Below are positions 134 to 13,309 of a stretch of 13,828 bases of DNA, one piece after another. The notes beneath the pieces were generated by a model, which had not been told where the DNA came from, searched no databases, and was given only the letters and a program-made list of their open reading frames with translations. Made by a program: the position numbers and the translations under genes. Source of the DNA: Deinococcales bacterium. Lineage in GTDB: Bacteria > Deinococcota > Deinococci > Deinococcales > JAAFIG01. The DNA is taken from positions 1-13,828 of the forward strand of contig JANNVX010000027.1 in the NCBI GenBank assembly GCA_031414595.1, in the 5' to 3' direction. Positions within the stretch are counted from its first letter, which is position 1. Every line of letters begins with the position of its first letter.

Positions 134-451
134 AATATAATTATCATGGATTTTACGGCTTTTCTCGAGCATATTATCGCTGGGTTTATCCAAATACTCG
201 GCAACAAAACGCCGCCACTCAGCCTCTGAAAACAACACATTATTCAGATTTTGCAACTGCACCCGCAGATTAGCCAGCATTGTTTCGGGGTTGGTCAGTT
301 CGGGGCGGTACTCGTAGCCTTGGTTGACCAAATCCTGAACCAGTTCCCGTTCCAAATCGGCTTCGCTCTGATAACCACTGCCTAGCTGGTCAATTTTGGT
401 GTATTTATCCAAAACAATAAAATTATTGGATTCCGCAATGGGTGTCATCAT
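116..451 (-). pseudogene. hsdR: Type I restriction endonuclease subunit R (EcoR124I-like), N-terminal fragment truncated by an IS
   Basis: [13 protein letters not shown]...[15 protein letters not shown]...[13 protein letters not shown]...EWRRF...KIHDNYI matches the EcoR124I-type HsdR N-terminus. It then reads RRYRK* from IS sequence, whereas full HsdR is about 1000 aa. AGGAG lies upstream. Confidence 0.9.
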
Positions 452-494
452 TTGCTACACGCTCCTATCAGGTCTTTAAGTTCTCGAGAAGTGA

Positions 495-500
495 ATTCTA
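495..500 (-). promoter_or_regulatory. Putative -10 element (TAGAAT) for hsdR
   Basis: Minus strand reads GGG-TAGAAT about 45 nt upstream of the hsdR ATG, with an AGGAG Shine-Dalgarno in between. Confidence 0.4.
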
Positions 501-529
501 CCCATGAAACGCATAAATTTTAGTATCTT

Positions 530-1450
530 CTAAGAAATTTTGTTCTGCTCGAGAATTTCGGCACTCAGTCCTGTACTGGCTTGGATTTCTAGTAAGGTTT
601 GTCCGGCTGCTCTTAGAATTCGGGCAATCTCGAGCAGTTTTTGCTCGGCTCTGGCTTTCTCCTCGAGAATTCCAGCTTCTCGACCCTCAGCAATTCCAAC
701 TTCTCGCCCTTTTGCTTCTCCCTCGAGCAGTCCTTCTTGTCTTGCTGACTTGAACGCCGAATAATTATCCCGCATGATTTTTAAGCTCTGGTCGTAGGTG
801 TCCAGTTCATTCGGCTCGAGATTCGCGTATTTAGCTGTTTCAAAAGCCGATAGAAACGCTTCTTCCTTAAACAGTTCTGGAATTTGTTGCAAGTCACTTA
901 AATTCTTTAAGAAGTACAACCACTTATCAAGGCGTGTTTCTAACTTCTCGAGTGGCTTATTAAAATTCGGCATCTCGAGATAAATAAAGGTTAATTTTTT
1001 GTAGAATACTTGGTTGTTCTGGTCTTTGAGTTCAACCGTATGAACCACTTCGGTACGATTGGCTTTGTTGTCATCGAAGGTAAAACCTAAAACACCAACG
1101 CAATACACAGGTTGAAGCAAGTAATCCCAGTCTCCTTGCTTACCTTGGTCTTGAATCGGGAAGCTCGAGTAATAGATGGTTCTGTCCTTGAAGTTAATTT
1201 GTTTTACTTTTTGCAACTCAACTATAAAATACTCACCATTTTCGCCACGGCAATAAATGTCGTAAACGGCTTTACGTTCATCTGCGGAGCGTGGGAGTTG
1301 CTCGAGGTTCTTGAAACTCAAATCGGCTATTTTGGCTTCATCTGGCAGCAATGAATTAAGGAAATCAATCAAATGCGGCTTAGACGCTTCTTCCCCAAAG
1401 ATTTTTTTGAATCCAAAATCAGTAAAAGGATTGATGAAGGTCGTGAACAT
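530..1450 (-). CDS. Rpn family recombination-promoting nuclease / PD-(D/E)XK transposase-like protein (PDDEXK_2)
   Basis: N-terminal FINPFTDFGFKKIFG, catalytic YDIYC...FIVELQ, DRTIYYS, FIYLEMPNF, LDKWLYFLKN and the C-terminal EG-rich repeat (RQEGLLEGEAKGREVGIAEGREAG) followed by I..TGLS.. Confidence 0.92.
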   Translation of the reverse strand: MFTTFINPFTDFGFKKIFGEEASKPHLIDFLNSLLPDEAKIADLSFKNLEQLPRSADERKAVYDIYCRGENGEYFIVELQKVKQINFKDRTIYYSSFPIQDQGKQGDWDYLLQPVYCVGVLGFTFDDNKANRTEVVHTVELKDQNNQVFYKKLTFIYLEMPNFNKPLEKLETRLDKWLYFLKNLSDLQQIPELFKEEAFLSAFETAKYANLEPNELDTYDQSLKIMRDNYSAFKSARQEGLLEGEAKGREVGIAEGREAGILEEKARAEQKLLEIARILRAAGQTLLEIQASTGLSAEILEQNKIS

Positions 1451-1456
1451 GTTAAA

Positions 1457-1462
1457 ATCGTA
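1457..1462 (-). promoter_or_regulatory. -10 element TACGAT, leaderless start of rpn
   Basis: TACGAT-tttaac-ATG (6-nt spacer), no Shine-Dalgarno. Confidence 0.55.
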
Positions 1463-1497
1463 ACCGAAGACAGTTTATTTTCCAAGAGCTAAAACGC

Positions 1498-2691
1498 TTA
1501 GACCCCCACCACTAATTTAGGAAAACTAAGCAGCAATTCGCGGTAATACTCGTACTGCTGTTGGCGCTGCGCGATTTCAAGCGGCAACCCTTCGGTGATG
1601 GAATTGGTCAGGGCATCGAATTTATCCAAGATAGCCACGATTCGGGCTTGAGTCTCGAGGGGCGGGACGGGGATGCGAATTTTTTCAATTCCACTCACCA
1701 ATAATCTATTCACTTTTCCTCGAGAAACATGTTTCGCTTTTTCATCAATGAATGCAGATGTTTGCATTGCATAGGAAATATATTTTGGATTCATCGAATG
1801 GCGAAAAGCATAGCTGTCGTCGTGAATAGCCACTTTTTCAGTTCCAATCCAAGCAACAGCTTTACCAACATCTTCAACAGTCTCACCAACTCCTGCCATA
1901 ACAACATCATTAGGCTGTGCATAGCGCAATGAATCTGCCATGTCAAACCGAACTTTAGATACTGTGTGAGCCGTCCAAACACCGTACTGAGTGTATATCT
2001 CACCGTAGTGAATAACACTGATACCATCTTCGACATAATCAGCTTTAGTAAATCGCTTGCCGCGAATAAATTCGCCAATCTGCCCTAACGGTTTCCATTC
2101 TGCTTGCCCATCTTCAAAGGTTAAAAGCTGGTTGCGGTAGTAGGCGTATTGCTTTTTGCGGGCTGTAAGCTCCGCTGTAAGCTCCGCAAATGTATCCAAT
2201 ATACAAACAATTTTCGCTTGAATCTCGAGGGGCGGGATAGGGATTTGATACTCCAGTATTTTATCTTTATTGCCTCGAGGCATTTTTGCCCCTTTAGCAT
2301 GTTGCATGTTGTAATCGAAAAATTTATCGTCTGCCAAAACTTGATACAAATATCGAGAATCAACTTTCTTGTCGGTTATGTGTATTACAAGAACATCTCC
2401 ATTTGTGCCACCAATACAATCGGCGTGCCAGATTTTCTTTAAGTAAGGACGAATATTACCAATTAAAATATCACCAACACCATAACCCGTTAAATTACCT
2501 TCTGTTGGTACATAGTTTGATTGTGTTTTACCGCTTCGATTTTGTAGGAGATTATCAACGCCCACATAATTTGACTCGTCAAGTATATTAGAACTAATCC
2601 GCGTTCTCGAGTATTCAGCCACTTTCCTTAACGGTTTCCATTCCACCGTCACACCCTCGAGCAACCTGCCCATAAACGTTTGCTGGCTCAT
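1498..2691 (-). CDS. hsdS: Type I restriction-modification specificity subunit S (type IC)
   Basis: Two TRDs, each framed by EWKPL and IP(I/V)PPLE.QA.IV.ILD.F. Central TAEL linker with RKKQY, and C-terminal [26 protein letters not shown] overlap with the hsdM stop. Confidence 0.95.
2162..2187 (-). repeat. 12-bp tandem repeat (two copies + 2 nt) encoding the AELT/TAEL spacer linker of HsdS
   Basis: GCTGTAAGCTCC at 2162-2173 and 2174-2185, protein [15 protein letters not shown]. Confidence 0.85.
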
Positions 2692-4229
2692 GCTTCTATC
2701 TCGGCAATAATGGCATCTATTTCGGTTCGGAGGCGGTCTATTTTGGTAACGGTGGTTTTTAAGTTACTGTTCAGGGTTGTAATATTCACCACTTCTCGAG
2801 TGTCCTTGGCTTGTACATACGAACTTACTGAAAGGTTGTAGTCGTTGCTTTCTATGGTCTCGAGGTCAACCGATTTGGCTAGGTGTTCAACATCGGTTTT
2901 ATCATCAAAAATCTGCATAATTTGGTCTATGTGGTCTTCGGTTAGCATGTTGTTATTGGTTTCTTTTTTGAAGAATCCACTGGCATCTATAAACTGGGTT
3001 CTCGAGTCTGGTTTGTGTTTAGATAGCACCAAGATACACACTGAAATGGTTGTGCCATAAAACAGGTTTGGGGCTAATGAAATCACGGTTTCTACAAAGT
3101 TATTGTCTACCAAGTATTGTCGGATTTTTTGTTCCGCCCCGCCCCTATAAAAGATACCGGGGAAACAAACGATTGCGGCACGTCCTTTGCTTGACAAGTA
3201 ACTGAGCGCATGAAGCACAAAAGCAAAATCGGCTTTGGATTTGGGGGCTAGAACACCTGCTGGGGCAAAACGGTCATCGTTTATCAGGGTTGGGTCGTCG
3301 CTGCCAATCCAATTGACCGAATAGGGCGGGTTTGAAACGATTGCATCAAAGGGTTTTTGGTCGCCAAAATGTGGGTCTAGGAGCGTGTTGCCCAAGGCGA
3401 GGTTGAACTTGTCGTAGTTGATGTTGTGTAAGAACATGTTCATTCGCGCTAGGTTGTAAGTGGTGTGGTTGATTTCCTGACCGAAGAATCCTTCTTCGAT
3501 GATGTGGGCATCGAAGTGTTTTTTGGCTTGTAGCAGCAAAGAACCAGAACCCGCCGCAGGGTCATAAATTTTATTAACGGTGGTTTGTTTGTGCATGGCG
3601 AGTTGGGCAATCAGTTTGGAAACATTTTGTGGAGTGAAAAATTCACCGCCCGATTTACCCGCGTTGGCGGCATAGTTGGAGATTAAAAACTCGTAGGCAT
3701 CGCCGAAGAGGTCAATCTGGTTGTCTTCAAAATTGCTAAAACTTAGTCCTGCAACACCTTTAAGAACGGCAGTCAAACGGAAATTCTTGTCTTTGACGGT
3801 GTTGCCTAGGCGGTTACTGGTGGTGTCAAAATCGGCAAACAAACCTTTAATGTCTGTTTCTGAAGGGTAGCCGTTGGCAGAGCTTTCTATTGCCAAAAAA
3901 ATTTCTTTGAGTTCGGTGTTTAGGTTCTCGTTGTCTTTGGCTCTTAAAGACACGTTCAAAAAAAGCTGGCTTGGGTAAATAAAATAGCCTTTGGTTTTGA
4001 TCGCATCGTCTTTTATTTCTGCCAAGATGTCAGCATCAAGCATCTTGGCGTAGTTGATGCTTTCGTCGCCACCTTCGATGTACCTTGTAAAGTTTTCGCT
4101 GATAAAACGGTAAAAAAGAGTCCCTAGGACATACTGCTTAAAATCCCATCCATCTACTGAACCGCGTACATCGTTGGCTATTTTCCAGATTTGGGCTTGT
4201 AATTCGGCGCGTTGGGCTGTGCTTGTCAT
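2688..4229 (-). CDS. hsdM: Type I restriction-modification methyltransferase subunit M (N6-adenine)
   Basis: [38 protein letters not shown]-binding [11 protein letters not shown] and catalytic NPPY. Start reassigned to ATG 4229 ([10 protein letters not shown]) because AGGAG lies 8 nt upstream and HsdM-like sequence begins there. Confidence 0.95.
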
Positions 4230-4275
4230 TTTTTTACTCCTGATGACGAGTTTAACGCATTTTTGCACAACAAGC

Positions 4276-4306
4276 CTCGAGCAGAGGCATATGGCTTTTG
4301 CTCGAG
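4276..4306. repeat. Imperfect inverted repeat / hairpin closed by two CTCGAG sites, between mazF and hsdM
   Basis: CTCGAGCAGAGGC-ATATG-GCTTTTGCTCGAG: 13-bp arms with two G-T pairs on the + strand. Confidence 0.55.
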
Positions 4307-4321
4307 AAATAGCCATTAAGT

Positions 4322-4645
4322 TCAGAATGTATCTAAGCCCAAAGCAAAAATGGCTGCTCTTTGTACTTCCCGCAATCTGGTACGACTTAAATCCGTAATG
4401 AATTCACCCAAAGTTTCTTTAGGCACAGTTTGGAGGTTATCAAAAGAAATGGCTGACCGTTCAATCAGACCATCAAATGTTTCTAGTGTGACTTGCGATG
4501 CAATCCCTCGAACTCGAGTGGTGAGCGGTGCAACGGTTAGGTTTTGTAAATGAGGAATCAGTTCATCACGAGTTAAAATCATGACAGGGCGTTCTTTTTC
4601 GAGGTCGCACCAGCAAATATCACCGCGCCGCCATGCTCGAGTCAC
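4322..4645 (-). CDS. mazF: Type II toxin, PemK/MazF family endoribonuclease
   Basis: [22 protein letters not shown]...[30 protein letters not shown] overlap with the antitoxin stop. Confidence 0.9.
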
Positions 4646-4866
4646 ACATCACCCCAAGCTCGTTTTTTTGGTTGCCAAGTATCGGTTTCGGGTTGCTCGA
4701 GAAAACTCTGGCGATGCGCTACTTCCCACATTTGGTTCTGACGGCGTTTTAGTTCGGCTTGGAGGGCAATGCGAATAAAGGCACTACGGGTTTCACGGGA
4801 TTGTTCGGCGGCGGCATCTACAGCAAGCAGAAGTGGTTCATCCAGTGTCATTTGCACAGTTTTCAT
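4642..4866 (-). CDS. Ribbon-helix-helix (CopG-like) antitoxin of the MazF toxin
   Basis: MKTVQMTLDEPLLLAVDAAA....TRSAFIRIAL is an RHH signature; 74 aa, directly upstream of and overlapping mazF. Confidence 0.88.
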   Translation of the reverse strand: MKTVQMTLDEPLLLAVDAAAEQSRETRSAFIRIALQAELKRRQNQMWEVAHRQSFLEQPETDTWQPKKRAWGDV

Positions 4867-4872
4867 AAGGGG

Positions 4873-4878
4873 ATTTTA
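4873..4878 (-). promoter_or_regulatory. -10 element TAAAAT (TG just upstream), leaderless start of the antitoxin gene
   Basis: tgtgg-TAAAAT-cccctt-ATG (6-nt spacer). Confidence 0.6.
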
Positions 4879-4965
4879 CCACATAAAAATGTTGAAGACC
4901 CTGATTTAAGCAGTAATCCTCCTGCCCTGCCTAAAACTCGAGAAAACCCCAAGGTTAATTTGGGT

Positions 4966-4971
4966 TAGACT
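4966..4971 (+). promoter_or_regulatory. -10 element TAGACT, leaderless start of the aldo/keto reductase gene
   Basis: TAGACT-aagccc-ATG (6-nt spacer), no Shine-Dalgarno. Confidence 0.6.
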
Positions 4972-4977
4972 AAGCCC

Positions 4978-5997
4978 ATGACCACTTATCGGCGTTTGGG
5001 CAATTCTGGTTTGCATCTTTTTGCATTAGGACTCGGTACAATGCAGTTTGGTTGGACGTGCGACGAAGCGCGTTCGTTTGAAATTATGGATGCTTACTTC
5101 GCGGCGGGTGGAAATTTTATTGACACTGCCGATATTTACAGTTCTTGGGCAGAAAATAACGCTGGTGGCGTGTCTGAAGAAATCATTGGGCGTTGGGTTA
5201 AGGCTCAAAATAATCGTGACCAGTTGGTGCTTGCCACCAAGGTGCGCGGTGCAATGGGAACGAATTTTTCGCAAGGGCGCAACACCATCCATCAGCGTGA
5301 AGGTTTATCCAGAAAATGGATTCTAAAAGCCTGTGAGGACAGCTTAAAACGCTTGCAAACCGATTATATTGATTTGTACCAAGTTCATTGGGTGGACACC
5401 GAAACCCCAATCGAAGAAACATTATCTGCCCTGACCGATTTGGTCAAAAAAGGCTATGTGCGCTACATCGGCTGTAGTAATTTTAGTGCTTGGCGTTTAA
5501 TGCAGTCGCTCTGGGCATCGGATAAGCACAACCTAGAAAAATTTATTAGTATCCAACCCGAATACAGTCTGGTGCAACCGACCCGAGCCAATTTTGAACG
5601 CGAACTGGCGAAGGTCTGTCTCGAGTACGGCATTGGTGTGATTCCGTACAGTCCGTTAGCGGCTGGGTTTTTAACCGGTAAATACCGCCGTGGGCAACCC
5701 CTGCCAGACAGCGTGCGGGCGGGTGGCATTGGCTCGAGCCGAATGAATGAACAGAATTTAGATTTGATTGAAAAACTGGTAGAAATTGCGGCTGAACACA
5801 ACACAACCGCTACTCGAGTGACACTGGCTTGGATGTTAGCCCAGCCATTTATGAGTGCGCCAATTATTGGGGCAAACAACACCACGCAATTGGCGGATTC
5901 TCTTGGGGCAATAGACTTAAGCCTGACAGAAGACCAAATCAAGGCAATTTCTAGCGTCTCAGACTGGACTCGTGCCAGAACTGACCTCGAAAACTAA
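4978..5997 (+). CDS. Aldo/keto reductase (NAD(P)H-dependent)
   Basis: [86 protein letters not shown]. Confidence 0.95.
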
Positions 5998-6007
5998 GAA
6001 CAACCTG

Positions 6008-6013
6008 TAGAAT
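6008..6013 (+). promoter_or_regulatory. -10 element TAGAAT, leaderless start of the GSPII/MshEN gene
   Basis: TAGAAT-gtgttt-ATG(6020), 6-nt spacer. Confidence 0.6.
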
Positions 6014-6019
6014 GTGTTT

Positions 6020-7540
6020 ATGTTCATACTTTCCGAGGCAAATCAGAAACTAGCCGATTTACTGCTTGGTCAAGAAATTCTAACCGCTTCGGAATTAAAG
6101 CAAATACTCGAGCAGCACAGTTTAATCGGTGGGCGATTAGCCGATTTTTTAGTAGATACAGCTATTGTCCCAGAAGCCTCGTTGTTGCGCTTATACCAAA
6201 GGGCTTATGATTTTGAATTGGTTGGTTTTTCTAGCCTAGAAACGATTGACCGCCAAGTGGCTCGGATTATTCCAGCCCATTTGGCACAACTACAAATGAT
6301 CATTCCTTTTGCCCAAGAAGGCTTGGATATTCATTTGGCTTGTCTCGAGCCACCAGACTTAGAAGCCTTAGCCCAAATGAAGGGTTTAATCGGTAAGCAT
6401 ATCCAAGTGTTTTTAGCCCCAAGGGATTTAATGCGTTGGGCAATTGCTAAACATTACCCAGAATTATTTTTAACCCCAGCCAATCCAAATAGTCTGCGCG
6501 ACCCATTCGAGAACCGCATCGGACACCGTTTAATTGCCGAAGGTTTACTGACCGAATCGCAACTCGAGGAAGCACTGTTAGAACGCACCCCCGGTAAGGC
6601 TGGGCGGACTGGCGAATTACTAATGCGGATGGGCTATATCGCCGAGGATGACTTATACCGTTCTTTGGCAGCGCAAACGAAAATTCCATTCGTCAAAATC
6701 CCGCTCGAGTACAGCATTCCTAGTGCTGTGGCAGGGCTTTTTACTCGAGCCGATGTGATGCGCTGGCAGAGTATTCCAGTCTTTGAAGACCAAACCAGCA
6801 TTACTATTTTGACCAGCGAACCCAATATAATTGCTGACCTTGAGCCACTTTTTGATCGCAGCCTGACCCCGATGATTTCCACACCGACGCAAATTAAATT
6901 TTTAGCCCAACAACTCGAGACCGAGGATAAACCCTTGGTGCGCTTATTGTTAAAAACACACCTGCGGCTCGAGCAACGCGCCAAAGCCTTGATACACGCC
7001 CAAGAACACAACTTAGAACTGACCGAAGCGCTCTTAGAACTTGGTTTTGTCAGCCACGCAAACCTAGAAGCAGCACGTATTGCCATCCCCAGCGAACAAG
7101 TGATTCCAACCGAACAACCTTGGGAACTCTCATTCTCGGGACGCTTAGCCCATACCTTAGCCGAGCAACTTGGGGTGACTTATGTTGACCCAACAGAAAA
7201 CCCACCAGATTTAAGTTTGAGTTCTTTAATCCCAGAAAAAACCATGCGTCAATACTCGTTGTTCCCGTATCAAAAAACCATCGCTGGTTTAGCTGTGTTG
7301 ATGACCGACCCAAGAAACATTTTTGCGCTCAACGACTTAGAAGCCTTGCTCGAATTACCCATAGAACCCGTGATGGCGGACAGACTCGAGATTGAAAAAC
7401 TGATAGATGCTGCCTTTAGCACCTTAGTGACACTCGAAAACATTGAACCAATACCAGAAACACCCGAAGCCACCATTCGGCGTCACATCCGCGAAGAACT
7501 CGAGACCTTTCGTAAGCAATTGTTGCTTGATTTGCGGTAA
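6020..7540 (+). CDS. Protein made of tandem GSPII_N / T2SSE_N (MshEN) modules, without an ATPase domain
   Basis: Three repeats of helical MshEN-like pair + IP..(A)....(I/L)PF subdomain. The best motif is RIGHRLIAEGLLTESQLEEALLE...RTGELLMRMGYIAEDDLYRSLAAQ, and a late module has LAEQLGVTYVD...LIPEKTMRQYSLFPY...MTDPRNIFALNDL. No Walker A GxxGxGK(T/S). Start set to ATG 6020 on the leaderless promoter. Confidence 0.8.
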   Translation: MFILSEANQKLADLLLGQEILTASELKQILEQHSLIGGRLADFLVDTAIVPEASLLRLYQRAYDFELVGFSSLETIDRQVARIIPAHLAQLQMIIPFAQEGLDIHLACLEPPDLEALAQMKGLIGKHIQVFLAPRDLMRWAIAKHYPELFLTPANPNSLRDPFENRIGHRLIAEGLLTESQLEEALLERTPGKAGRTGELLMRMGYIAEDDLYRSLAAQTKIPFVKIPLEYSIPSAVAGLFTRADVMRWQSIPVFEDQTSITILTSEPNIIADLEPLFDRSLTPMISTPTQIKFLAQQLETEDKPLVRLLLKTHLRLEQRAKALIHAQEHNLELTEALLELGFVSHANLEAARIAIPSEQVIPTEQPWELSFSGRLAHTLAEQLGVTYVDPTENPPDLSLSSLIPEKTMRQYSLFPYQKTIAGLAVLMTDPRNIFALNDLEALLELPIEPVMADRLEIEKLIDAAFSTLVTLENIEPIPETPEATIRRHIREELETFRKQLLLDLR

Positions 7541-7561
7541 TTGAGGCATTTAAGTTACAAT
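7532..7561 (+). promoter_or_regulatory. Putative sigma70 promoter of the permease-glnA4 cluster
   Basis: TTGCGG (7532-7537), 18-nt spacer, TACAAT (7556-7561). Confidence 0.5.
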
Positions 7562-7648
7562 TCAGGGGTTCGCTGGCTCACACACTACGCTCGAGGTGCT
7601 TATCTGCCTCGTTATTTTTGTATAGCCAACGACCAAGGAGGGAATTGC

Positions 7649-9157
7649 ATGAGTCAATCAAACGACCAGCAGCAAATCAATGAGGATGTCAAAGTCCTGC
7701 ACAGCATGGGCTACGCCCAAGAACTGGCGCGTCGCATGAAGAGCTTTAGTAATTTTGCGATAGCCTTTTCGATTATCTGTATTTTATCTGGTGGCATTAA
7801 CTCGCTTGGACAAGCCATCGGTGGGGCTGGCGGGGCAGCCATCGGGATTGGCTGGCCCATTGGGGTCGGCATCAGTTTTATTTTTGCGCTTGGTATGGCA
7901 CAAATTGCCAGTGCCTACCCAACTGCCGGTGGTTTGTACCATTGGAGCAGTATCCTTGGCGGGCGTGGTTGGGGCTGGGCGACGGGTTGGCTTAATTTAC
8001 TTGGTTTGGTAACGGTGCTTGGCGCAATTAACGTCGGTACGTTCTACTTTTTTATTGGAGCGTTTGGCGGGGCGCTTGGACTCGAGGCAAACTTAACCAC
8101 CCAAGTGATTTTTCTGATTATCCTGACTGGAATTCAAGCGGCGGTCAATCACTTTGGAATTCAATTAACCACCATGCTGACCGATATTTCGGGCTACCTG
8201 ATTTTTGCAGTTGCCATTGCCCTGACGCTTGCCTTAATTATTTATGCGCCAAGCCGCGACTTTGCAAGGCTTTTTACCTTCACCAATTACTCGGGTGAAG
8301 CTGGTGGTAATGTCTGGCCCAGTACCGATCTAACCACGGTTTTTTTACTTGGCTTATTGCTGCCGATTTACACGATTACGGGTTACGATGCTTGCGCTCA
8401 TGTTTCCGAAGAAACGGTCAATGCTCAACGCGCCGTGCCTCGCAGCATTATCTCGAGTACCCTCTGGTCTGGGTTATTTGGCTACATCATGCTTTGCGCC
8501 TTTGTGATTGCTATTCCAGACATGAATGAAGCTGCCAAACAGGGCTTTAATGTCTTTTTCTATGTTATGGGTGCAGTTGTGCCAAGTGGGATTCGAGAAG
8601 TGCTTTATGTCGGTGTGTTTCTGGCACAAGTGCTTTGTGGATTGGCGACAGTTACCAGCGCCTCGAGAATGATTTTTGCCTTTGCTAGAGATGGTGGTTT
8701 CCCAAGTTTCTTAAAGGTGATTGATAAAACCTACCGTACCCCAGTCGCCGCAATTTGGACGGCTGGTATTGTTAGTATCTTATTTACCTTGTACGCCCCT
8801 GTGTACAGCACGATAGTCACGATTTGCGTGATTTTCTTGTTCTTAAGTTATGCCATGCCAATCGGTGCTGGTTTACTGGCGTATGGGAAGACTTGGACAA
8901 CCATGGGTCCTTGGGATATGGGTGCAAGTTTTAGAATTGTTGCAGTTGCGGCTGTTATTTGTATTCTCTTTATTTTTGGTATTGGCATCCAACCCCCAAA
9001 CGATAAAGCCCTTTGGGTGACACTTGGCATGTTTGCTTTACTGATTGCTGCATGGTTTGCCCTCGAGAAGAACCGTTTTACAGGACCACCCACCGGCGAA
9101 GGAATTGCCAAACGCCAAGCCGAGATTAAAGCCACCGAACAAGCCATTGACAACTAG
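7649..9157 (+). CDS. APC superfamily amino acid/amine permease
   Basis: LHSMGYAQELARRMKSFSNFAIAFSII, MAQIASAYPTAGGLYHW, YTITGYDACAHVSEET, SASRMIFAFARDGG, RTPVAAIW; about 12 hydrophobic helices. Start moved to ATG 7649 after the Shine-Dalgarno AAGGAGG (7635-7641). Confidence 0.93.
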   Translation: MSQSNDQQQINEDVKVLHSMGYAQELARRMKSFSNFAIAFSIICILSGGINSLGQAIGGAGGAAIGIGWPIGVGISFIFALGMAQIASAYPTAGGLYHWSSILGGRGWGWATGWLNLLGLVTVLGAINVGTFYFFIGAFGGALGLEANLTTQVIFLIILTGIQAAVNHFGIQLTTMLTDISGYLIFAVAIALTLALIIYAPSRDFARLFTFTNYSGEAGGNVWPSTDLTTVFLLGLLLPIYTITGYDACAHVSEETVNAQRAVPRSIISSTLWSGLFGYIMLCAFVIAIPDMNEAAKQGFNVFFYVMGAVVPSGIREVLYVGVFLAQVLCGLATVTSASRMIFAFARDGGFPSFLKVIDKTYRTPVAAIWTAGIVSILFTLYAPVYSTIVTICVIFLFLSYAMPIGAGLLAYGKTWTTMGPWDMGASFRIVAVAAVICILFIFGIGIQPPNDKALWVTLGMFALLIAAWFALEKNRFTGPPTGEGIAKRQAEIKATEQAIDN

Positions 9158-9206
9158 GAGGAAAGAGGAAGGAGAAAAAAATAGTTCTTCCTCTTTCCTC
9201 TTTTTT
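9158..9206 (+). terminator. Perfect 14-bp inverted repeat plus T6 tract (intrinsic terminator-like) between the permease and the GS-like gene
   Basis: GAGGAAAGAGGAAG (9158-9171) / CTTCCTCTTTCCTC (9187-9200), followed by TTTTTT. Confidence 0.6.
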
Positions 9207-9228
9207 CGTTCCTCTGCCTTTAAGGAGC

Positions 9229-10563
9229 ATGATGATTTCACTAACCGAACTCCGAAGCCTCGTCTCGAGCAATTCAATAGACACCGTAATCATTGCCCTG
9301 ACCGACATGCAGGGGCGTTTAATGGGTAAGCATGTGACTGCCGAATTTTTTTTAGAAGAAGTTGTCCCAAACGGGGCAGAAGGTTGTAACTATTTACTGG
9401 CAGTGGATACCGAAATGCGAACTGTAGATGGCTACGCGCTCAGCAGTTGGGGTACTGGCTACGGCGATTTTGTAATGAAACCCGACCTGAACACCCTAAG
9501 AATCGCCCCGTGGCTCGAGAAAACCGCAATGGTGCAAGTGGATTTAGAAAGCCATGACCATTTGCCAGTCTTGCCAAGCCCTCGGCAAATCCTCAAACGC
9601 CAACTCAAACGGCTCGAGGAGCGCGGGTTGGTGGCACTAGCTGCCACAGAACTCGAGTTTATTTTGTTCAAAGATTCTTACGAAGCCGCTTGGAAAAAAG
9701 CCTACCGTGACCTCGAGCCGTTTAATTATTACAACGTAGATTACAGCATTATTGGCACATCCAGAGCCGAACCCGTGATTGGGCAGATTCGCCGGCAAAT
9801 GACCCAAGCGGGCTTGGTCGTCGAAAATTCCAAAGGCGAATGTAACTTTGGACAGCACGAAGTTAATTTTAAGTACAAAGATGCGCTGTCTACCGCCGAT
9901 GACCATGTGGTCTACAAAACAGGGGCAAAAGAAATTGCCAGCCGCATGGGACACAGCCTAACCTTCATGGCAAAATTCAATGAAAAAGAAGGCAGCAGTT
10001 GCCACATTCATTTTAGTTTACGGCAAAAAGATGGAACACCGATTTTTAAGACCGACCCTGCAAGTTTCGATGCGTTCCTAGCGGGTCAACTGGCTTATTT
10101 GCGTGAACTGACGTTGTTCTATGCCCCAAACATCAACAGCTACAAACGTTATGCCATCGGCAGTTTTGCACCTACTGCCGTAGCATGGGGACGCGATAAC
10201 CGTACTTGTGGACTGCGTGTGGTGGGTTCTGGTGCTTCGCTTCGTCTCGAGAATCGCGTTCCCGGAGCAGATGTCAACCCGTACTTGGCACTGGCTGCAA
10301 TGATTGCCGCAGGGTTACAAGGAATAGACGATAAACTTGTTCTCGAGCCAGAATTTAAGGGCAATGCTTACCATTCAGATAAGCCTCGAGTACCACGCAA
10401 CATGCACGTTGCTCGAGAACTTTTTGCAAATTCGAGCCTTGCCAAAGAAGCCTTTGGGGATGTGGTGGTGGCGCATTACTTAAATTATGCCGATGTTGAA
10501 CTCGATGCTTATGATGCGGCTGTGACTGATTGGGAGCGTTTTAGGGGTTTTGAGCGGTTATAA
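9229..10563 (+). CDS. Glutamine synthetase-like gamma-glutamylamide ligase, GlnA4/PuuA-type
   Basis: IDTVIIALTDMQGRLMGK, EGCNYLLAVDTEM.TVDGY.LSSW..GYGDF (as in actinobacterial GlnA4), ATELEF, SKGECNFGQHE, GSSCHIHFS, NSYKR, WGRDNRT, RLENRVPGADVNPY, VTDWER.RGFERL. The start may be ATG 9232. Confidence 0.9.
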   Translation: MMISLTELRSLVSSNSIDTVIIALTDMQGRLMGKHVTAEFFLEEVVPNGAEGCNYLLAVDTEMRTVDGYALSSWGTGYGDFVMKPDLNTLRIAPWLEKTAMVQVDLESHDHLPVLPSPRQILKRQLKRLEERGLVALAATELEFILFKDSYEAAWKKAYRDLEPFNYYNVDYSIIGTSRAEPVIGQIRRQMTQAGLVVENSKGECNFGQHEVNFKYKDALSTADDHVVYKTGAKEIASRMGHSLTFMAKFNEKEGSSCHIHFSLRQKDGTPIFKTDPASFDAFLAGQLAYLRELTLFYAPNINSYKRYAIGSFAPTAVAWGRDNRTCGLRVVGSGASLRLENRVPGADVNPYLALAAMIAAGLQGIDDKLVLEPEFKGNAYHSDKPRVPRNMHVARELFANSSLAKEAFGDVVVAHYLNYADVELDAYDAAVTDWERFRGFERL

Positions 10564-10564
10564 A

Positions 10565-11128
10565 ATGGTTAAGTTTTATATTGAGATGTATTCAATCCTT
10601 GAAGCTCAAAAAACGGCTCAAATTTTACAGATTTACGAGGATACTGGCTTAGCCACTTTCCTAATCTCTTTTCCATTTCAAAAATTTTCTTTGCTTTCAA
10701 AGGTCATCATCAATAATACAGAGGTAAACGGTATCTATAGCTACCGCAGTAACCAGTGTGAGATTAGCGTTTTTCGTTTGGCAAAAGATTTTGGACAGGT
10801 TTTTAAGTATCAGAATTTTTACAGCATCAGTACACTGGCAATAAACCAGACTCGAGCCATACAGACCACAGCTATTCACGAATTAGGTCATCATATTCAT
10901 GCTTTTTTGCAACAGACATACCCACAATTTTTTCGTAAAACCATGCAAATTCCAATTGTTTTTGGGTTAAGTCAATATGCCCGAAAAGACAACCTCGAGT
11001 ATTTTGCCGAATGCTTTACAGCTTTTGTCTTTTGTAGAGCTAAATTGTTGCAGCATGACCAAATTGGGTATAACATGATTGTAGAAGGGCTTGAAATTTT
11101 GGAGATTCAAGTAAAGGAAATATCATGA
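10565..11128 (+). CDS. Putative zinc metallopeptidase (zincin/gluzincin fold), function unknown
   Basis: TAIHELGHHIH (HExxH) and downstream SQYARKDNLEYFAECF (third-ligand E motif); AT-rich. ATG 10565 directly follows the GS-like stop. Confidence 0.7.
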   Translation: MVKFYIEMYSILEAQKTAQILQIYEDTGLATFLISFPFQKFSLLSKVIINNTEVNGIYSYRSNQCEISVFRLAKDFGQVFKYQNFYSISTLAINQTRAIQTTAIHELGHHIHAFLQQTYPQFFRKTMQIPIVFGLSQYARKDNLEYFAECFTAFVFCRAKLLQHDQIGYNMIVEGLEILEIQVKEIS

Positions 11129-11343
11129 CACAACTGGCAGAACGCCCTATTTTACAACGCTCAGATGCAGAAATAGCCAATGATTTGACTATGACTTTTT
11201 TTGATGGCGTACTTACTCAAGCTGAATATGACAAAGCCATTCAAGAGTTAATCAATCGTCACTTCTCAGCAGAAGCACTGGGTACACTCATCCTCTTTGG
11301 TGAACTCGAGTGGCAACGAAAGTATCGGCAAGAAAATGTTTGA
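11125..11343 (+). CDS. Small hypothetical helical protein, translationally coupled to the peptidase
   Basis: 72 aa, Shine-Dalgarno AAGGA and ATGA overlap with the peptidase stop. Confidence 0.65.
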   Translation: MTQLAERPILQRSDAEIANDLTMTFFDGVLTQAEYDKAIQELINRHFSAEALGTLILFGELEWQRKYRQENV

Positions 11344-11429
11344 ACCACAAACTAAAGCCTTACTCGAGTTTATAGACCAACTCTCGAGCGAGTGCAGTAT
11401 CCAGTGTGAACTAACGAAGGGAGTAATCT

Positions 11430-12203
11430 ATGCGTCTCGAGAATAAAGTGGCTTTAATTACAGGTGGCGGCAGTGGCATTGGCAAAGAATCAGCATTGCT
11501 GTTTGCAAAAGAGGGCGCAAGTGTGGTCGTGGTGGATTTGAACGAAACTGCTGGTCAAGCGGTGGTCTCGAGTATTGTCGCCTCTGGTGGACAAGCCGTG
11601 TTTGCCAAAGCCGATGTTTCTAAAGCCAAAGACTGCCAGAACATGGTGCAGGTGGCAGAGGATACCTTTGGTAAACTGAATGTGATTTTTAATAACGCTG
11701 GTATTTCCCACGCGGACGACGACAACGCCATGAACACCGAAGAAGATGTCTGGGATTTAACTTTTGCGATTAACGTCAAGGGTGTCTTTTTGGGTTGCAA
11801 ATATGCCATTCCTGCTATGCTACGGGCTGGTAGCGGTAGTATTATTAACACCGCTTCATTTGTGGCAGTGCTGGGCGCAGCCACGCCTCAACTGGCGTAC
11901 ACCTCGAGCAAAGGCGCAGTGTTAAGCATGACTCGGGAACTCGCCGCGATTCATGCCCGTCAAGGTATTCGGGTCAATGCCCTGTGTCCGGGTCCACTGC
12001 GTACTGAACTTTTAATGAAGTATTTGGATACCGAAGAAAAACGTCAACGCCGTTTAGTCCATATTCCAATGGGTCGTTTTGGCGAAGCTGAGGAAATGGC
12101 AAAAGCTGCCCTGTGGCTGGCTTCGGACGACTCGAGCTTTACCACTGGGGCAACCTTTTTAGCCGATGGTGGCATCACCAGTGCCTACACCACGCCACTC
12201 TAA
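11430..12203 (+). CDS. Short-chain dehydrogenase/reductase of the glnA4-associated subfamily
   Basis: TGGGSGIG, FNNAGI, catalytic S...YTSSK, GIRVNALCPGP and RRLVHIPMGRF (the last typical of the SDRs next to glnA4); Shine-Dalgarno AAGGGAG. Confidence 0.93.
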   Translation: MRLENKVALITGGGSGIGKESALLFAKEGASVVVVDLNETAGQAVVSSIVASGGQAVFAKADVSKAKDCQNMVQVAEDTFGKLNVIFNNAGISHADDDNAMNTEEDVWDLTFAINVKGVFLGCKYAIPAMLRAGSGSIINTASFVAVLGAATPQLAYTSSKGAVLSMTRELAAIHARQGIRVNALCPGPLRTELLMKYLDTEEKRQRRLVHIPMGRFGEAEEMAKAALWLASDDSSFTTGATFLADGGITSAYTTPL

Positions 12204-12213
12204 AAGCAAACGA

Positions 12214-12238
12214 GGCTCGAGATTTTTGGTCTCGAGCC
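12214..12238. terminator. Hairpin between convergent SDR and ADH genes, built from two CTCGAG sites
   Basis: GGCTCGAGAT-TTTTG-GTCTCGAGCC; 10-bp stem with one G-T pair. Confidence 0.55.
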
Positions 12239-12242
12239 GCAC

Positions 12243-12270
12243 CTCATAGCTCAAGACTCATAGCTCATAG
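12243..12270 (+). repeat. Heptamer tandem repeat (CTCATAG)x4, one degenerate unit
   Basis: CTCATAG CTCAAGA CTCATAG CTCATAG. Confidence 0.75.
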
Positions 12271-12274
12271 CCCT

Positions 12275-13309
12275 TTACGGTATCAAAATCACTTTACTGG
12301 CAACTCGAGTATCAAACAATTCATACCCTTCGGCAGCGTCCTCGAGTGCAAGGCGGTGTGAAATCACGATTGTTGGGTCTATTACGCCTGTTCTGACCAA
12401 TTCTAGGGTTTCGTCTATGTCGCGGTGAATGTTGGCTAAACCAATCCGAAAAGTAATATCTTTGGTCAGGCTTTGCATTAAAGGGTACTCGAAAGTTTGG
12501 GCAGAAGTCACACCAACTGCCGCAATGTACCCACCCGAGCGCACCATTTCAAAAGACATCAGAATCGTTTTAGTACCACCGACAGCTTCGATCACCGCAT
12601 CTACACCGTCACCGTTGGTCAGTGCCATGACTTGCCCGACGGCATCGCTTTTTTGTGCGTTAATCGTCTCTGCGCCCAAACCCGAGGCAAGTTGCAAGCG
12701 CTCCTCGAGCAGGTCAATGGCGAGGACTCGAGTTGCACCAAGGGCAAAGGCACTTTGGATTGCCATGATTCCCACAGGACCACAACCAAGAACAGCCACC
12801 GTACTACCAGCCCCAATTTTGGCGTTTTTAACTGCGCCAAACGCCGTAGTCAGAATATCGCCAGTGAACAGTGCAGCCTCATCAGCCAGACCTTCTGGGA
12901 TAAGCCGCAAATTGATGTTGGCGTTCGGCACTCGAGCATATTCGGCTTGTGTGCCACCCATCGAACCATAAATTGGACCGTAGCCGTAAACGGCAGCATT
13001 CGAGCAGAGGTGAAATTCTTGGCGTTGACAAGCGGTACACGCGCCACAAGCGGTGTGAAAAGTACCAACCACCCTTTGACCGCGCTTAAAACTGGTACTC
13101 GAGCCAGTATCCTCAACAATGCCCGTGAATTCATGTCCGCACGTATCGCCGGGCAGCATTGGAATATCACCGTGGTACAAATGTAAATCTGAGCCGCAAA
13201 TGGCACAACGGGTGACTTTAACAATCACATCGGTTGCCTCGAGAATTTCTGGCTCGGGAGTCTCGAGGACGGCGACTGAACCGATGTCTTGGAAGGTCAC
13301 GGCTTTCAT
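12275..13309 (-). CDS. Zinc-dependent alcohol dehydrogenase (MDR family, formaldehyde-dehydrogenase-like)
   Basis: AICGSDLH, GHEFTG, structural Zn site CGACTACQRQEFHLC, GTQAEYARVP, GDILTT and GCGPVG. Confidence 0.95.
   Translation of the reverse strand: MKAVTFQDIGSVAVLETPEPEILEATDVIVKVTRCAICGSDLHLYHGDIPMLPGDTCGHEFTGIVEDTGSSTSFKRGQRVVGTFHTACGACTACQRQEFHLCSNAAVYGYGPIYGSMGGTQAEYARVPNANINLRLIPEGLADEAALFTGDILTTAFGAVKNAKIGAGSTVAVLGCGPVGIMAIQSAFALGATRVLAIDLLEERLQLASGLGAETINAQKSDAVGQVMALTNGDGVDAVIEAVGGTKTILMSFEMVRSGGYIAAVGVTSAQTFEYPLMQSLTKDITFRIGLANIHRDIDETLELVRTGVIDPTIVISHRLALEDAAEGYELFDTRVASKVILIP

Follow-up and report, generated by a model that had tools for sequence, protein, structure and literature searches.

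In one family of Deinococcota, the hexamer CTCGAG is a true highly iterated palindrome. Throughout the resident DNA of this family, irrespective of what is encoded, precisely these six bases are subject to a fixation bias: one-step variants become CTCGAG at a rate above neutral, and established copies disappear about 7–10 times more slowly than under neutrality. Highly iterated palindromes (HIPs) have remained a puzzle for some thirty years and, to our knowledge, were known only from cyanobacteria before. CTCGAG constitutes a second and independent case, five times denser, in another phylum, showing that the phenomenon is general, and the bias is strong enough to double the frequency of one dipeptide.

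In the window, meaning the whole analysed stretch of 13,828 nucleotides, CTCGAG occurs exactly 71 times (5.1/kb), with the first and last copies starting at 164 and 13262, respectively, in agreement with the approximate count and the positions given in a preliminary description of this DNA. The mean in 200 dinucleotide-preserving shuffles is 1.69 and the maximum 6, which upholds the excess proposed there but lowers its expectation of about 2–3 sites. With a 13-ORF model, codon phases 0, 1, and 2 hold 36, 15, and 12 sites, respectively, and eight sites are intergenic; 32 sites are located in plus-strand and 31 in minus-strand genes, so the earlier statement that all phases and both strands are represented is correct, as are its three examples of phase. 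Four of the six sites that it considered intergenic (483, 4937, 12216, and 12231) are indeed so, whereas 4276 and 4301 fall within the hsdM ORF when it is read at its longest (2688–4316); since the HsdM family match begins only at residue 35, these two may nonetheless be intergenic. The principal features are as follows:

164..13267, no strand: span of all 71 CTCGAG sites, 5.1/kb
483..488, no strand: intergenic CTCGAG between ORFs 116–451 and 530–1450
3007..4275, minus strand: longest site-free stretch of the window (1,270 bp), within hsdM of a Type I restriction system
4937..4942, no strand: intergenic CTCGAG upstream of gene 4978–5997
5813..5818, plus strand: phase-1 site, aCT-CGA-Gtn, Thr-Arg-Val, in the aldo-keto reductase gene 4978–5997
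9264..9269, plus strand: phase-2 site, gtC-TCG-AGn, Val-Ser-Ser, phase as placed in the ORF model
9514..9519, plus strand: phase-0 site, CTC-GAG, Leu-Glu in the context LEK, in the glutamine-synthetase-like gene 9229–10563
12212..12238, no strand: hairpin with a 9-bp stem made by sites 12216 and 12231, terminator-like as read from the sequence, between the convergent genes 11430–12203 (plus) and 12275–13309 (minus)

The whole genome (4.49 Mb) contains 23,235 copies, or 5.2/kb, corresponding to approximately one per 190 bases and an observed-to-expected ratio (O/E) of 23.9, which makes CTCGAG the top hexamer, threefold ahead of all others. Protein coding does not explain this abundance, as had been argued from the window. 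The ORFs of the window carry 63 sites against 5.66 expected from 200 synonymous-codon shuffles (sd 2.2, maximum 12), and those of the genome carry 19,373 against 1,825–1,965 (about 1,870), a tenfold excess; shuffling of whole codons yields only 828–911. Genome-wide, codon phases 0, 1, and 2 hold 11,569, 3,749, and 4,055 copies, and the density in non-ORF DNA (5.32/kb) equals that in ORFs (5.15/kb). Leu-Glu is the dipeptide with the highest over-representation (O/E 2.22, compared with about 1 for Glu-Leu), and 60% of Leu-Glu pairs are encoded as CTCGAG; the bias has made Leu-Glu about twice as frequent in the proteome. An origin in codon or dipeptide usage, in a dispersed repeat, or in an assembly or library artefact was tested and rejected in each case, and we regard this group of explanations as extremely improbable. 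CTC and GAG are preferred codons in high-GC relatives and do lift the baseline there, as in genus g9, where the word reaches about 0.8–1/kb, near its reversed control word. A repeat element is contradicted by flanks that carry neither a conservation nor a composition signal. Confinement to one contig, which would have undermined the proposal, is contradicted by all 120 contigs of the assembly, each with 2.3–8.6 copies/kb. An assembly artefact is likewise ruled out, since the 18 other genomes of the family, independently assembled, share the excess at orthologous positions; DNA of the window was also found in sequencing runs from more than one study.

The density is not uniform along the genome. 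The tRNA genes (5.3 kb) contain seven copies against 27.5 at genome density, and the ribosomal-protein cluster contains 3.0–3.4/kb, a depletion that represents functional constraint opposing the bias. The density rises to as much as 7.0/kb in the first 40 bp past stop codons. Gaps longer than 1,500 bp without the word (n = 42) have a mean GC content of 40.5%, compared with 47.2% for the genome. Lineage-specific insertions are at full density (5.5/kb), low-GC islands are site-poor, as are nine of ten MITE-like families, and foreign-looking DNA contains the word at about chance density, so that CTCGAG distinguishes resident from incoming DNA.

All 19 genomes of the family, which represent five genera and are 57–94% complete (94% for G000; G013 is a single contig), carry 4.3–6.8 copies/kb. 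Comparison of G000 with G003, which share 78.6% DNA identity, reveals 1,087 shared sites and 312 and 621 unshared ones, a retention of 77.7% as opposed to 30% for control hexamers, with similar values in codon phases 0, 1, and 2 and in non-ORF DNA. Third-codon positions adjoining the word diverge by about 40% and those within it by 6–9%; the constraint spans exactly six bases, and the flanks show no sign of conservation. Base frequencies from −10 to +10 are near background, with mild avoidance of C before the word and of G after it. Where only one genome has the word, the other is a single step away from it in 30% of cases, compared with 51% for controls. The excess thus survives codon-based nulls, extends over the whole lineage, and is conserved in position, and together these properties bear out the earlier proposal that a process of this lineage creates and maintains CTCGAG, as well as the likeness to HIP1, since the word is independent of frame and strand and present in coding and non-coding DNA. 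Other families of Deinococcota contain weaker forms of the excess, with an index of 35 in this family, approximately 9–10 in two genomes of high quality from another family, and about 5 in G019, while genus g7 avoids the word (0.01–0.3/kb).

The value of 18*N0/N1 is 34.9, which gives a population-scaled bias S of 3.55. At this S, copies should be lost at 0.105 of the neutral rate, and the observed figure is 0.134, so one value of S, about 3.5, accounts for the abundance of the word as well as for its conservation. In formal terms, however, the model treats selection and biased conversion alike, so the fit cannot tell drive apart from function. Spacing is Poisson-like, with a hazard that is flat for gaps of 75–300 bp and a pair correlation that is flat beyond 60 bp; neighbouring sites inhibit one another only at short range, up to about 75 bp. 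Neither helical nor longer periodicity was found at lags up to 600 bp in the 120-contig assembly. The lack of a flank signal and the Poisson-like spacing indicate that the bias acts site by site. A repeat-family test of the direction of mutation comprised ten families, with few one-step precursor positions. Indel junctions are not associated with CTCGAG (17 of 155, compared with 11.9% expected), and a reading of the word as a rearrangement hotspot was dropped for this reason.

Some of these properties would suit a selected binding site, in which an abundant DNA-binding protein that organises or compacts the nucleoid targets CTCGAG and each copy brings a very small fitness benefit. The word is conserved in position in all contexts, the constraint is confined to six bases, and the inhibition between neighbours fits a footprint; a spacing of about 190 bp also lies within the range of abundant nucleoid proteins. 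We nevertheless consider this explanation improbable, as there is no candidate protein, the sites lack the periodicity sought above, and about 10,000 amino-acid changes are hard to square with individually tiny benefits. Selection and a role in chromosome structure have been argued for HIP1, in the accessible part of the account by Xu and colleagues (2018; PMC5861425).

The preliminary description had favoured a conserved orphan TCGA/CTCGAG methyltransferase with methyl-directed repair, and this part of it is not supported by gene content. In the corresponding model of Elhai for HIPs, a methyltransferase would mark the word and methyl-aware mismatch or very-short-patch repair would convert near-matches to it. 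This genome does encode more than 20 methyltransferases, two with TaqI-like recognition domains, MutS is present in 17 of the 19 family genomes, and CTCGAG appears among the methylated motifs of hot-spring communities in the portion of that source consulted. However, no orthologous methyltransferase spanning the five genera was found in the 19 genomes (57–94% complete), a statement about orthology rather than about specificity, which is unreadable from sequence, so that non-orthologous enzymes could have the same site. The TaqI_C-type enzymes L003 and L001 each occur in three of 19 genomes, one further genome has a distant homologue of L001, and the divergent L018 has orthologues in four of 19. 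G010 yielded no C5 enzyme, and the single-contig G013 no N6_N4 enzyme; the D12-class copies, only 26–28% identical, are not orthologous, and the sole gamma-class group widely common to the family is the Type I HsdM. The expected repair partners fare no better: MutH-like genes occur in two of 19 genomes, as part of a GATC-type restriction pair, and Vsr (PF03852) was not found in G000. Single-step differences, 110 at positions 3/4 of the word and 78 at positions 1/6, lack the strong hotspot of C-to-T change at a single cytosine. We therefore judge methylation-linked repair bias to be unlikely, and methyl-directed repair through a conserved orphan methyltransferase to be less likely here than an agent of transformation or recombination.

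CTCGAG is also the recognition word of the XhoI/PaeR7I restriction-modification systems. The XhoI-family nuclease (PF04555) was not found in G000 or in nine further sampled genomes of the family, and its model matched four of 301 genomes of the phylum. XhoI-type systems are present in sister families, in G021, G033, and G141, with a disrupted one in G031, and neither type of methyltransferase adjoining these nucleases has a close homologue in this genome. The true neighbour of the XhoI gene of G021 is a 340-residue N6_N4 enzyme; a 584-residue ORF beside it was discarded as a spurious antisense frame with stop-rich hits and no similarity to the enzyme of G031. Restriction targets are normally avoided, not enriched, and it is genus g7 that shows the avoidance typical of such a target, unlike the enriched family.

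Besides methylation, the preliminary description had named a DNA-uptake, recombination, or chromosome-organising signal, and these alternatives are still candidates. Our preferred, if tentative, candidate for the agent is a word-reading step in natural transformation or homologous recombination, of the kind now put forward for HIP1. Incoming or recombining DNA bearing CTCGAG would be favoured, alleles with the word would replace those without it in a molecular drive, and gene flow would be kept inside the CTCGAG-rich clade. Counted in favour of such an agent are the presence of ComEC in 18 of 19 family genomes, the contrast between insertions at full density and site-poor islands and MITE-like elements, the terminator-like hairpin of paired sites, and the density peak after stop codons. 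On the other hand, ComEC is present in all 22 non-family relatives (40 of 41 genomes overall), and since it is equally universal in sister families without the excess, its presence does not discriminate. A benefit at the level of DNA fragments should saturate and even out the spacing, whereas the hazard is flat with gap length, and known uptake sequences are longer, oriented, and sparser. The effect of HIP1 on transformation, as described in the part of the literature consulted, depends on methylation, whereas no conserved methyltransferase was found here. It is possible, although we hold this with low confidence, that CTCGAG is a methylation-independent 'self word', with a putative protein that reads the bare palindrome during uptake, recombination, or repair and biases every heteroduplex or incoming fragment in favour of the word. 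If so, the HIP puzzle would gain a second, independent, denser instance, and the graded strength of the trait across the phylum would allow the agent to be found by phyletic correlation.

Another DNA-level agent might be at work instead of transformation or recombination, for example a mismatch glycosylase that depends on sequence context, a nicking enzyme whose breaks lead to biased gene conversion, or a 'self' mark set by motif density and sensed by a nuclease of defence or end processing. A site-autonomous bias and an exact six-base footprint are expected of a sequence-specific enzyme, the chance-level density in foreign-looking DNA separates resident from incoming sequences, and the candidate families tried (MutH, Vsr, XhoI-type nuclease, and RecC) all fail to track the excess; neither these nor a methyltransferase was found family-wide. 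We consider such an agent rather unlikely, as it has no positive evidence, indel junctions are unlinked to the word, and RecC (PF04257) is missing from 41 of 41 genomes, which excludes a RecBCD/Chi system. Chi/RecBCD and the Dcm/Vsr very-short-patch repair of E. coli skew word frequencies less than about twofold, and Chi is oriented, while CTCGAG is palindromic. A target of Vsr-type repair is equally at odds with the failure to find Vsr in G000 and a C5 methyltransferase in G010.

Among known systems, the closest likeness is to the cyanobacterial HIPs, which are likewise palindromic words in tens-fold excess; they occur in every codon phase as well as in non-coding DNA, extend over whole lineages, and keep their positions between related genomes. 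An over-representation of at least about 15-fold is characteristic of the class, and CTCGAG, with its O/E of 23.9, lies above it, with conservation above background. In the portions of Elhai (2015; PMC4390886) consulted, the words are HIP1, GCGATCGC, and the alternates GGCGCC, GCsGC, GGGATCCC, and rCCGGy, with CTCGAG missing from the list; their density is 1,000–2,000 copies per Mb, compared with about 5,200 for CTCGAG, and a cognate methyltransferase is reported in every HIP-bearing cyanobacterium. As judged from sequence, no such enzyme could be assigned across the present word-rich genomes, which are 57–94% complete. CTCGAG is 6 bp long with 67% GC, while HIPs have 75% GC or more. Accessible parts of the literature also describe a periodic distribution of HIP1 at 10–90 kb (Xu, Lawrence & Durand 2018, PMC5861425) and a methylation-dependent increase in transformation efficiency, with HIP1 hypothesised to be an uptake sequence. 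The host is a member of Deinococcota and not a cyanobacterium: no photosystem reaction-centre gene was found in this genome, HIP1 core CGATCG occurs in it three times, and the best PDB match of its ribosomal protein uL2 is 1NKW/2ZJR (495 bits), which we take to be Deinococcus radiodurans. No 16S rRNA was found in this assembly.

The DUS of Neisseriaceae and the USS of Pasteurellaceae are oriented, non-palindromic words of 9–12 bp, present at about 1/kb. CTCGAG resembles them as a short genome-wide word of a naturally competent phylum, located in genes in all frames despite the cost to proteins, poor in foreign DNA, and able to form terminator hairpins in pairs; the ComEC uptake machinery is present as well, both inside and outside the family. 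It differs in that it is palindromic, 6 bp long, and present at 5/kb, and its flanks show no extended consensus; any role in uptake would be hypothetical.

No published report of a CTCGAG excess was found in a literature search whose scope did not extend to per-genome tables of top octamers (Elhai 2015 and a 2026 GBE paper). New here are the fit with S about 3.5, the Poisson-like spacing, the weaker forms in other families of Deinococcota, and the lack of a family-wide candidate enzyme. A conserved cognate methyltransferase, the anchor of current HIP models, was not found in the CTCGAG-rich family. The strength of the trait varies by degrees across Deinococcota, and the genomes concerned include some of high quality that resemble cultured relatives, which makes phyletic correlation, methylome analysis, and transformation work feasible. 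In practice, CTCGAG skews the statistics of codons and dipeptides, helps to recognise foreign DNA, and affects cloning and genome binning.

Two minor observations concern other sequences. The glutamine-synthetase-like protein of the window found matches only in Actinomycetota and other phyla in a contig search, at 61–67% identity. Among viral contigs, which are uninformative about phages of this family, 18 of 120 loci contain at least 4 CTCGAG/kb; these loci were picked for site clusters and are high in GC, and none matches the Deinococcota DNA compared.

The window carries 71 CTCGAG sites in its 13,828 bases, ranging from position 164 (first site) to 13262 (last site), just as the hand count of about 71 in the preliminary description had it; 200 dinucleotide-preserving shuffles average 1.69 sites and never exceed 6. 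In a 13-ORF model, 36 sites lie in phase 0 (CTC-GAG, Leu-Glu), 15 in phase 1, and 12 in phase 2, with 8 being intergenic; genes on the plus and minus strands carry 32 and 31 sites, respectively. The sites previously chosen to illustrate the three phases are read as described (Leu-Glu at 9514, Thr-Arg at 5813, and Val-Ser-Ser at 9264), as are four of the six sites assigned to intergenic DNA, while the other two, 4276 and 4301, fall in a stretch that may be a 5' extension of hsdM. The 63 sites within ORFs compare with 5.66 (sd 2.2, maximum 12) in 200 replicates of a shuffle that preserves every protein and the codon usage gene by gene. Features of the window are as follows.

530-1450, minus strand: gene of an Rpn-family recombination-promoting nuclease
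1498-2691, minus strand: Type I restriction specificity subunit
2688-4316, minus strand: HsdM gene, containing the longest site-free stretch of the window (3007-4275)
12216 and 12231: pair of sites forming a hairpin with a 9-bp stem, between convergent genes

Short intergenic sequences of ~30-70 bp at ~12242-12278 and ~9154-9228 have many matches in the source genome and its relatives (83-100% identity) and look like small dispersed intergenic repeats. The glutamine-synthetase-like protein (gamma-glutamyl-amine ligase type) encoded at 9229-10563 has its nearest relatives, among the listed public matches, in Actinomycetota MAGs (61-67% identity).

The assembly of the source genome (G000; 4.49 Mb, 120 contigs, 94% complete), in which the window is contig C27, contains 23,235 copies of CTCGAG (5.18/kb), with an observed-to-expected ratio (O/E) of 23.9. 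This word is threefold more frequent than any other hexamer, and the six that follow in rank each overlap it. Sites are found on every contig at 2.3-8.6/kb, and no flanking consensus is seen in this genome, only a mild avoidance of C before the word and of G after it. A codon-preserving null, named in the preliminary description as a check of its claim, was run genome-wide and leaves the excess in place: the 3,274 ORFs with a length of 150 aa or more hold 19,373 sites, versus 1,825-1,965 after synonymous-codon shuffling and 828-911 after whole-codon shuffling (five replicates each). The density of these ORFs, 5.15/kb, is close to that of the remaining DNA (5.32/kb). No dipeptide is more over-represented than Leu-Glu (19,213 versus 8,649 expected, O/E 2.22; Glu-Leu occurs 8,457 times), and CTCGAG spells 60% of all Leu-Glu pairs. 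The reading of the excess as a by-product or an artefact is rejected as scarcely credible, since the excess survives the codon null, extends over all contigs, and recurs in other genomes of the family; none of the findings that the preliminary description had set against itself (loss under the null, confinement to one contig, an artefact) came about. CGATCG, the core of the cyanobacterial highly iterated palindrome (HIP) HIP1, has 3 copies in the source genome. O/E is below 0.1 there for some 30 of the 64 palindromes of six bases (GGGCCC 0, TGCGCA 2, and GAGCTC 6 copies), and among four-base palindromes GGCC stands at O/E 0.01 and GATC at 0.14; this avoidance co-exists with more than 20 DNA methyltransferase genes. 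The arrangement CTCGAGNCTCGAG, with a spacing of exactly 7 bases, occurs 101 times; spacings of 8 and 9 occur 17-20 times.

Site density is 4.3-6.8/kb in each of the 19 family genomes, which represent five genera, and the reversed control word GAGCTC is nearly absent. In the phylum sample of 161 genomes, genera g13, g18, and g19 have 1.4-3.4/kb with the control word rare, g9 has ~0.8-1/kb, comparable to its control word, and the 79 genomes of g7 strongly avoid CTCGAG (0.01-0.3/kb, 26-1,010 copies per genome). Despite this avoidance, a search of 100 sampled g7 genomes gave no XhoI-family nuclease. Three non-family genomes were sampled for comparison with the codon null.

Non-family genomes of Deinococcota compared with the codon null
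G090: GC 64%; 3.45 sites/kb; hexamer rank 1; ORF sites 377 versus ~133 in the codon null; non-ORF 3.0/kb; Leu-Glu O/E 1.51
G117: GC 59%; 3.02 sites/kb; hexamer rank 1; ORF sites 294 versus ~74; non-ORF 2.95/kb; Leu-Glu O/E 1.54
G019: GC 58%; 1.6 sites/kb; hexamer rank 4
G019, GC3-filtered ORF set: ORF sites 311 versus ~190; non-ORF 1.87/kb; Leu-Glu O/E 1.11
G019, earlier ORF set: ORF sites 473 versus ~255; non-ORF 1.96/kb; Leu-Glu O/E 1.17

The excess in these sampled genomes and genera indicates that the trait is graded across the phylum and extends beyond the uncultured family. The index 18*N(CTCGAG)/N(one-step variants) gives a marked contrast, from ~35 in the family through ~9-10 in two genomes of another family and ~5 in G019 to baseline levels and, in g7, avoidance. 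Neither photosystem reaction-centre genes nor 16S rRNA are found in the source assembly. Its ribosomal protein uL2 matches best, among PDB entries, 1NKW/1NWX/2ZJR (~495 bits), the Deinococcus radiodurans 50S subunit, followed by the 1VY4 set (474 bits), from Thermus thermophilus, with the remaining entries at 376 bits or less.

Alignment of 258 kb of the congener G003 to the source genome (78.6% identity) reveals 1,087 sites present in both, 312 unique to G000, and 621 unique to G003. Thus, 77.7% of G000 sites are conserved, versus 30% of control hexamers, with conservation in phases 0, 1, and 2 and in non-ORF DNA of 0.79, 0.71, 0.79, and 0.78, respectively (controls 0.30, 0.30, 0.30, and 0.34). 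Identity within the word is 91-94.5% per position, whereas 30-45% of the third-codon positions directly flanking the sites differ, a level also seen far away (40.6%), so the constraint is limited to exactly six bases. Where the word is present in only one genome, the other is one step off in 30% of cases, versus 51% for differing control hexamers, which argues that one-step states are short-lived; the single-step partners of unshared sites are mainly transitions. The 23,235 copies and 11,992 one-step variants in G000 correspond to a gain/loss fixation ratio of 34.9 and to a population-scaled fixation bias towards the word, S, of 3.55. At this value, sites should be lost at 0.105 times the neutral rate; the distance observed within the word amounts to 0.134 times that at third codon positions, with Jukes-Cantor correction, third positions taken as the neutral proxy, and two-step flux ignored. 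To this approximation, a minimal two-state model with one S accounts for abundance and conservation together. The model fits selection and biased conversion alike; that CTCGAG is a selected protein-binding site seems to us improbable. Among 81 protein pairs with the outgroup G019 (53% identity), Leu-Glu is found in G019 at 24% of the 312 CTCGAG-encoded Leu-Glu positions of G000, the commonest other residue pairs there being LD, LR, IE, VE, and LQ.

The pair correlation of G000 sites is flat past ~60 bp, and no helical or longer spacing period is seen up to a lag of 600 bp. The gap hazard is 6.1-6.3/kb at 75-300 bp; shorter gaps have a lower hazard (1.5/kb at 6-10 bp), and the hazard declines above 400 bp. 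Empty stretches show no preferential gain of sites, so each site behaves autonomously, apart from an inhibition that acts at short range. GC averages 40.5% in the 42 gaps above 1,500 bp, versus 47.2% for the genome, and lineage-specific insertions, with 5.5 sites/kb overall, are site-poor only where they are low in GC. Density along genes is even, with a small peak of 7.0/kb directly past stop codons; indel junctions show no association with the word (17 of 155, versus 11.9% expected). The tRNA genes (5.3 kb) hold 7 sites, versus 27.5 at genome density, and the ribosomal-protein cluster has 3.0-3.4 sites/kb; function thus resists the word. Seven tRNA genes of the genome carry CTCGAG, five of them in the tRNA gene cluster G000:C56:144-2945. 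The consensus lacks CTCGAG in 9 of 10 MITE-like repeat families; in the sole site-bearing family, whose consensus has three, 55 of 63 copy-sites are kept at 12% divergence. One region is rich in repeats of this family.

G000:C49:473-6100: repeat-rich region in which two 2-kb segments have 25-27 matches, internal or paralogous

The bare hexamer CTCGAG is favoured across the lineage by a fixation bias that works site by site, strongly enough to overrule synonymous choice and many amino-acid positions. As its agent, the preliminary description favoured a methyltransferase with methyl-directed repair and proposed to look for a conserved enzyme co-occurring with the excess. Methylation-linked repair as the process creating or maintaining the word appears unlikely, because none of the methyltransferases of G000 seems, from gene content, to track the trait in the family (genomes 57-94% complete). 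The matches in G000 comprise 9 Eco57I-type, 9 N6_N4, 5 C5, and 1 D12 enzymes, and specificity is not readable from their sequences. Of the two enzymes with a TaqI-like recognition domain, L003 is present in 3 of the 19 family genomes and L001 likewise in 3, with a distant homologue in a fourth; for L018, a divergent methyltransferase of 424 aa, orthologues are found in 4 of the 19. Searches of G010 (91% complete) gave no C5 enzyme, and those of the single-contig G013 no N6_N4 enzyme. D12 enzymes occur in all five genomes searched, the G000 copy being just 26-28% identical to the G009/G011/G013 group. Clustering of all loci with reciprocal search gave an orthologue-like match in G000 for 5 of 35 foreign methyltransferase ORFs, and the sole methyltransferase group spanning three or four genera is Type I HsdM.

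Of 301 phylum genomes, 4 have XhoI-family nucleases; none was found in G000 or in nine sampled family genomes. The nuclease of G021 (L129, G021:C1:69000-81000) adjoins a 340-aa N6_N4 enzyme, with copies 71-73% identical in G033 and G141, and that of G031 (L061/L127, G031:C1) adjoins a 583-aa Eco57I/TaqI_C enzyme. Similarity in G000 is limited to a motif match of 62-94 residues for the former methyltransferase and to 23% identity for the latter. The nucleases of these sister families partner two unrelated methyltransferase classes, the N6_N4 type in G021, G033, and G141 and the Eco57I/TaqI_C type in G031; stop codons break the G031 nuclease gene.

MutH-like genes occur in 2 of the 19 family genomes, G000 and G005. 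In G000 the MutH/Sau3AI-like nuclease gene directly follows that of the D12-class (Dam-like) methyltransferase (G000:C1:26904-28483, L096/L243), so the two probably form a GATC-type restriction-modification pair; GATC has O/E 0.14. Vsr was not found in G000, RecC was found in 0 of 41 genomes, and MutS is present in 17 of 19 family genomes.

The agent that we would favour, tentatively and at rather less than an even chance, is a drive tied to transformation or recombination. Natural competence is known in Deinococcota, and ComEC was detected in 18 of 19 family genomes, as well as in each of the 22 relatives outside the family that were searched. A drive of this kind is also suggested by clade-internal accessory DNA being at full density and foreign-looking DNA at chance density, and by the terminator-like site pairs. 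Analogy to HIP1 points the same way, as far as the accessible portions of recent work on its role in transformation go (Kamoku & Nielsen 2024; Rodriguez-Cruz et al. 2026); however, the same portions describe an effect that needs methylation, and both the spacing without saturation and the form of CTCGAG, atypical for an uptake signal, argue against such a drive. An agent of yet another kind seems unlikely.

The CTCGAG excess behaves like those of the HIP class and shows its sequence-level properties, but the class is known from cyanobacteria, and this case lies outside them; in addition, the cognate methyltransferase reported for every HIP-bearing cyanobacterium would, judging by gene content, be missing here. 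CTCGAG does not appear among the alternate HIPs in the accessible part of Elhai 2015 (PMC4390886), or among the HIPs in that of a 2026 GBE paper; one methylome preprint, in its accessible part, has it among methylated motifs. The full-text literature searched, judged by listed titles and abstracts and with subscription journals and supplementary tables outside the search, yielded no report of CTCGAG hyper-abundance. HIP papers mentioning Deinococc concern cyanobacteria only, and the listed papers combining CTCGAG with Deinococc or Meiothermus use it in primers or cloning, except for the methylome preprint. New here are the negative survey of methyltransferase, MutH, Vsr, XhoI, and RecC, the restriction of the constraint to six bases, the fit with a single S, the Poisson-like spacing of sites, and the graded distribution of the trait over the phylum.

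High densities are also encountered in viral DNA. Among 120 IMG/VR loci (L275-L394), a biased sample picked for site clusters, 18 have at least 4 CTCGAG/kb, up to 6.9/kb, mostly at 58-71% GC. The ten densest long loci contain 294 sites, versus ~135 under a codon-preserving null, and reach 5.55/kb in non-ORF DNA.
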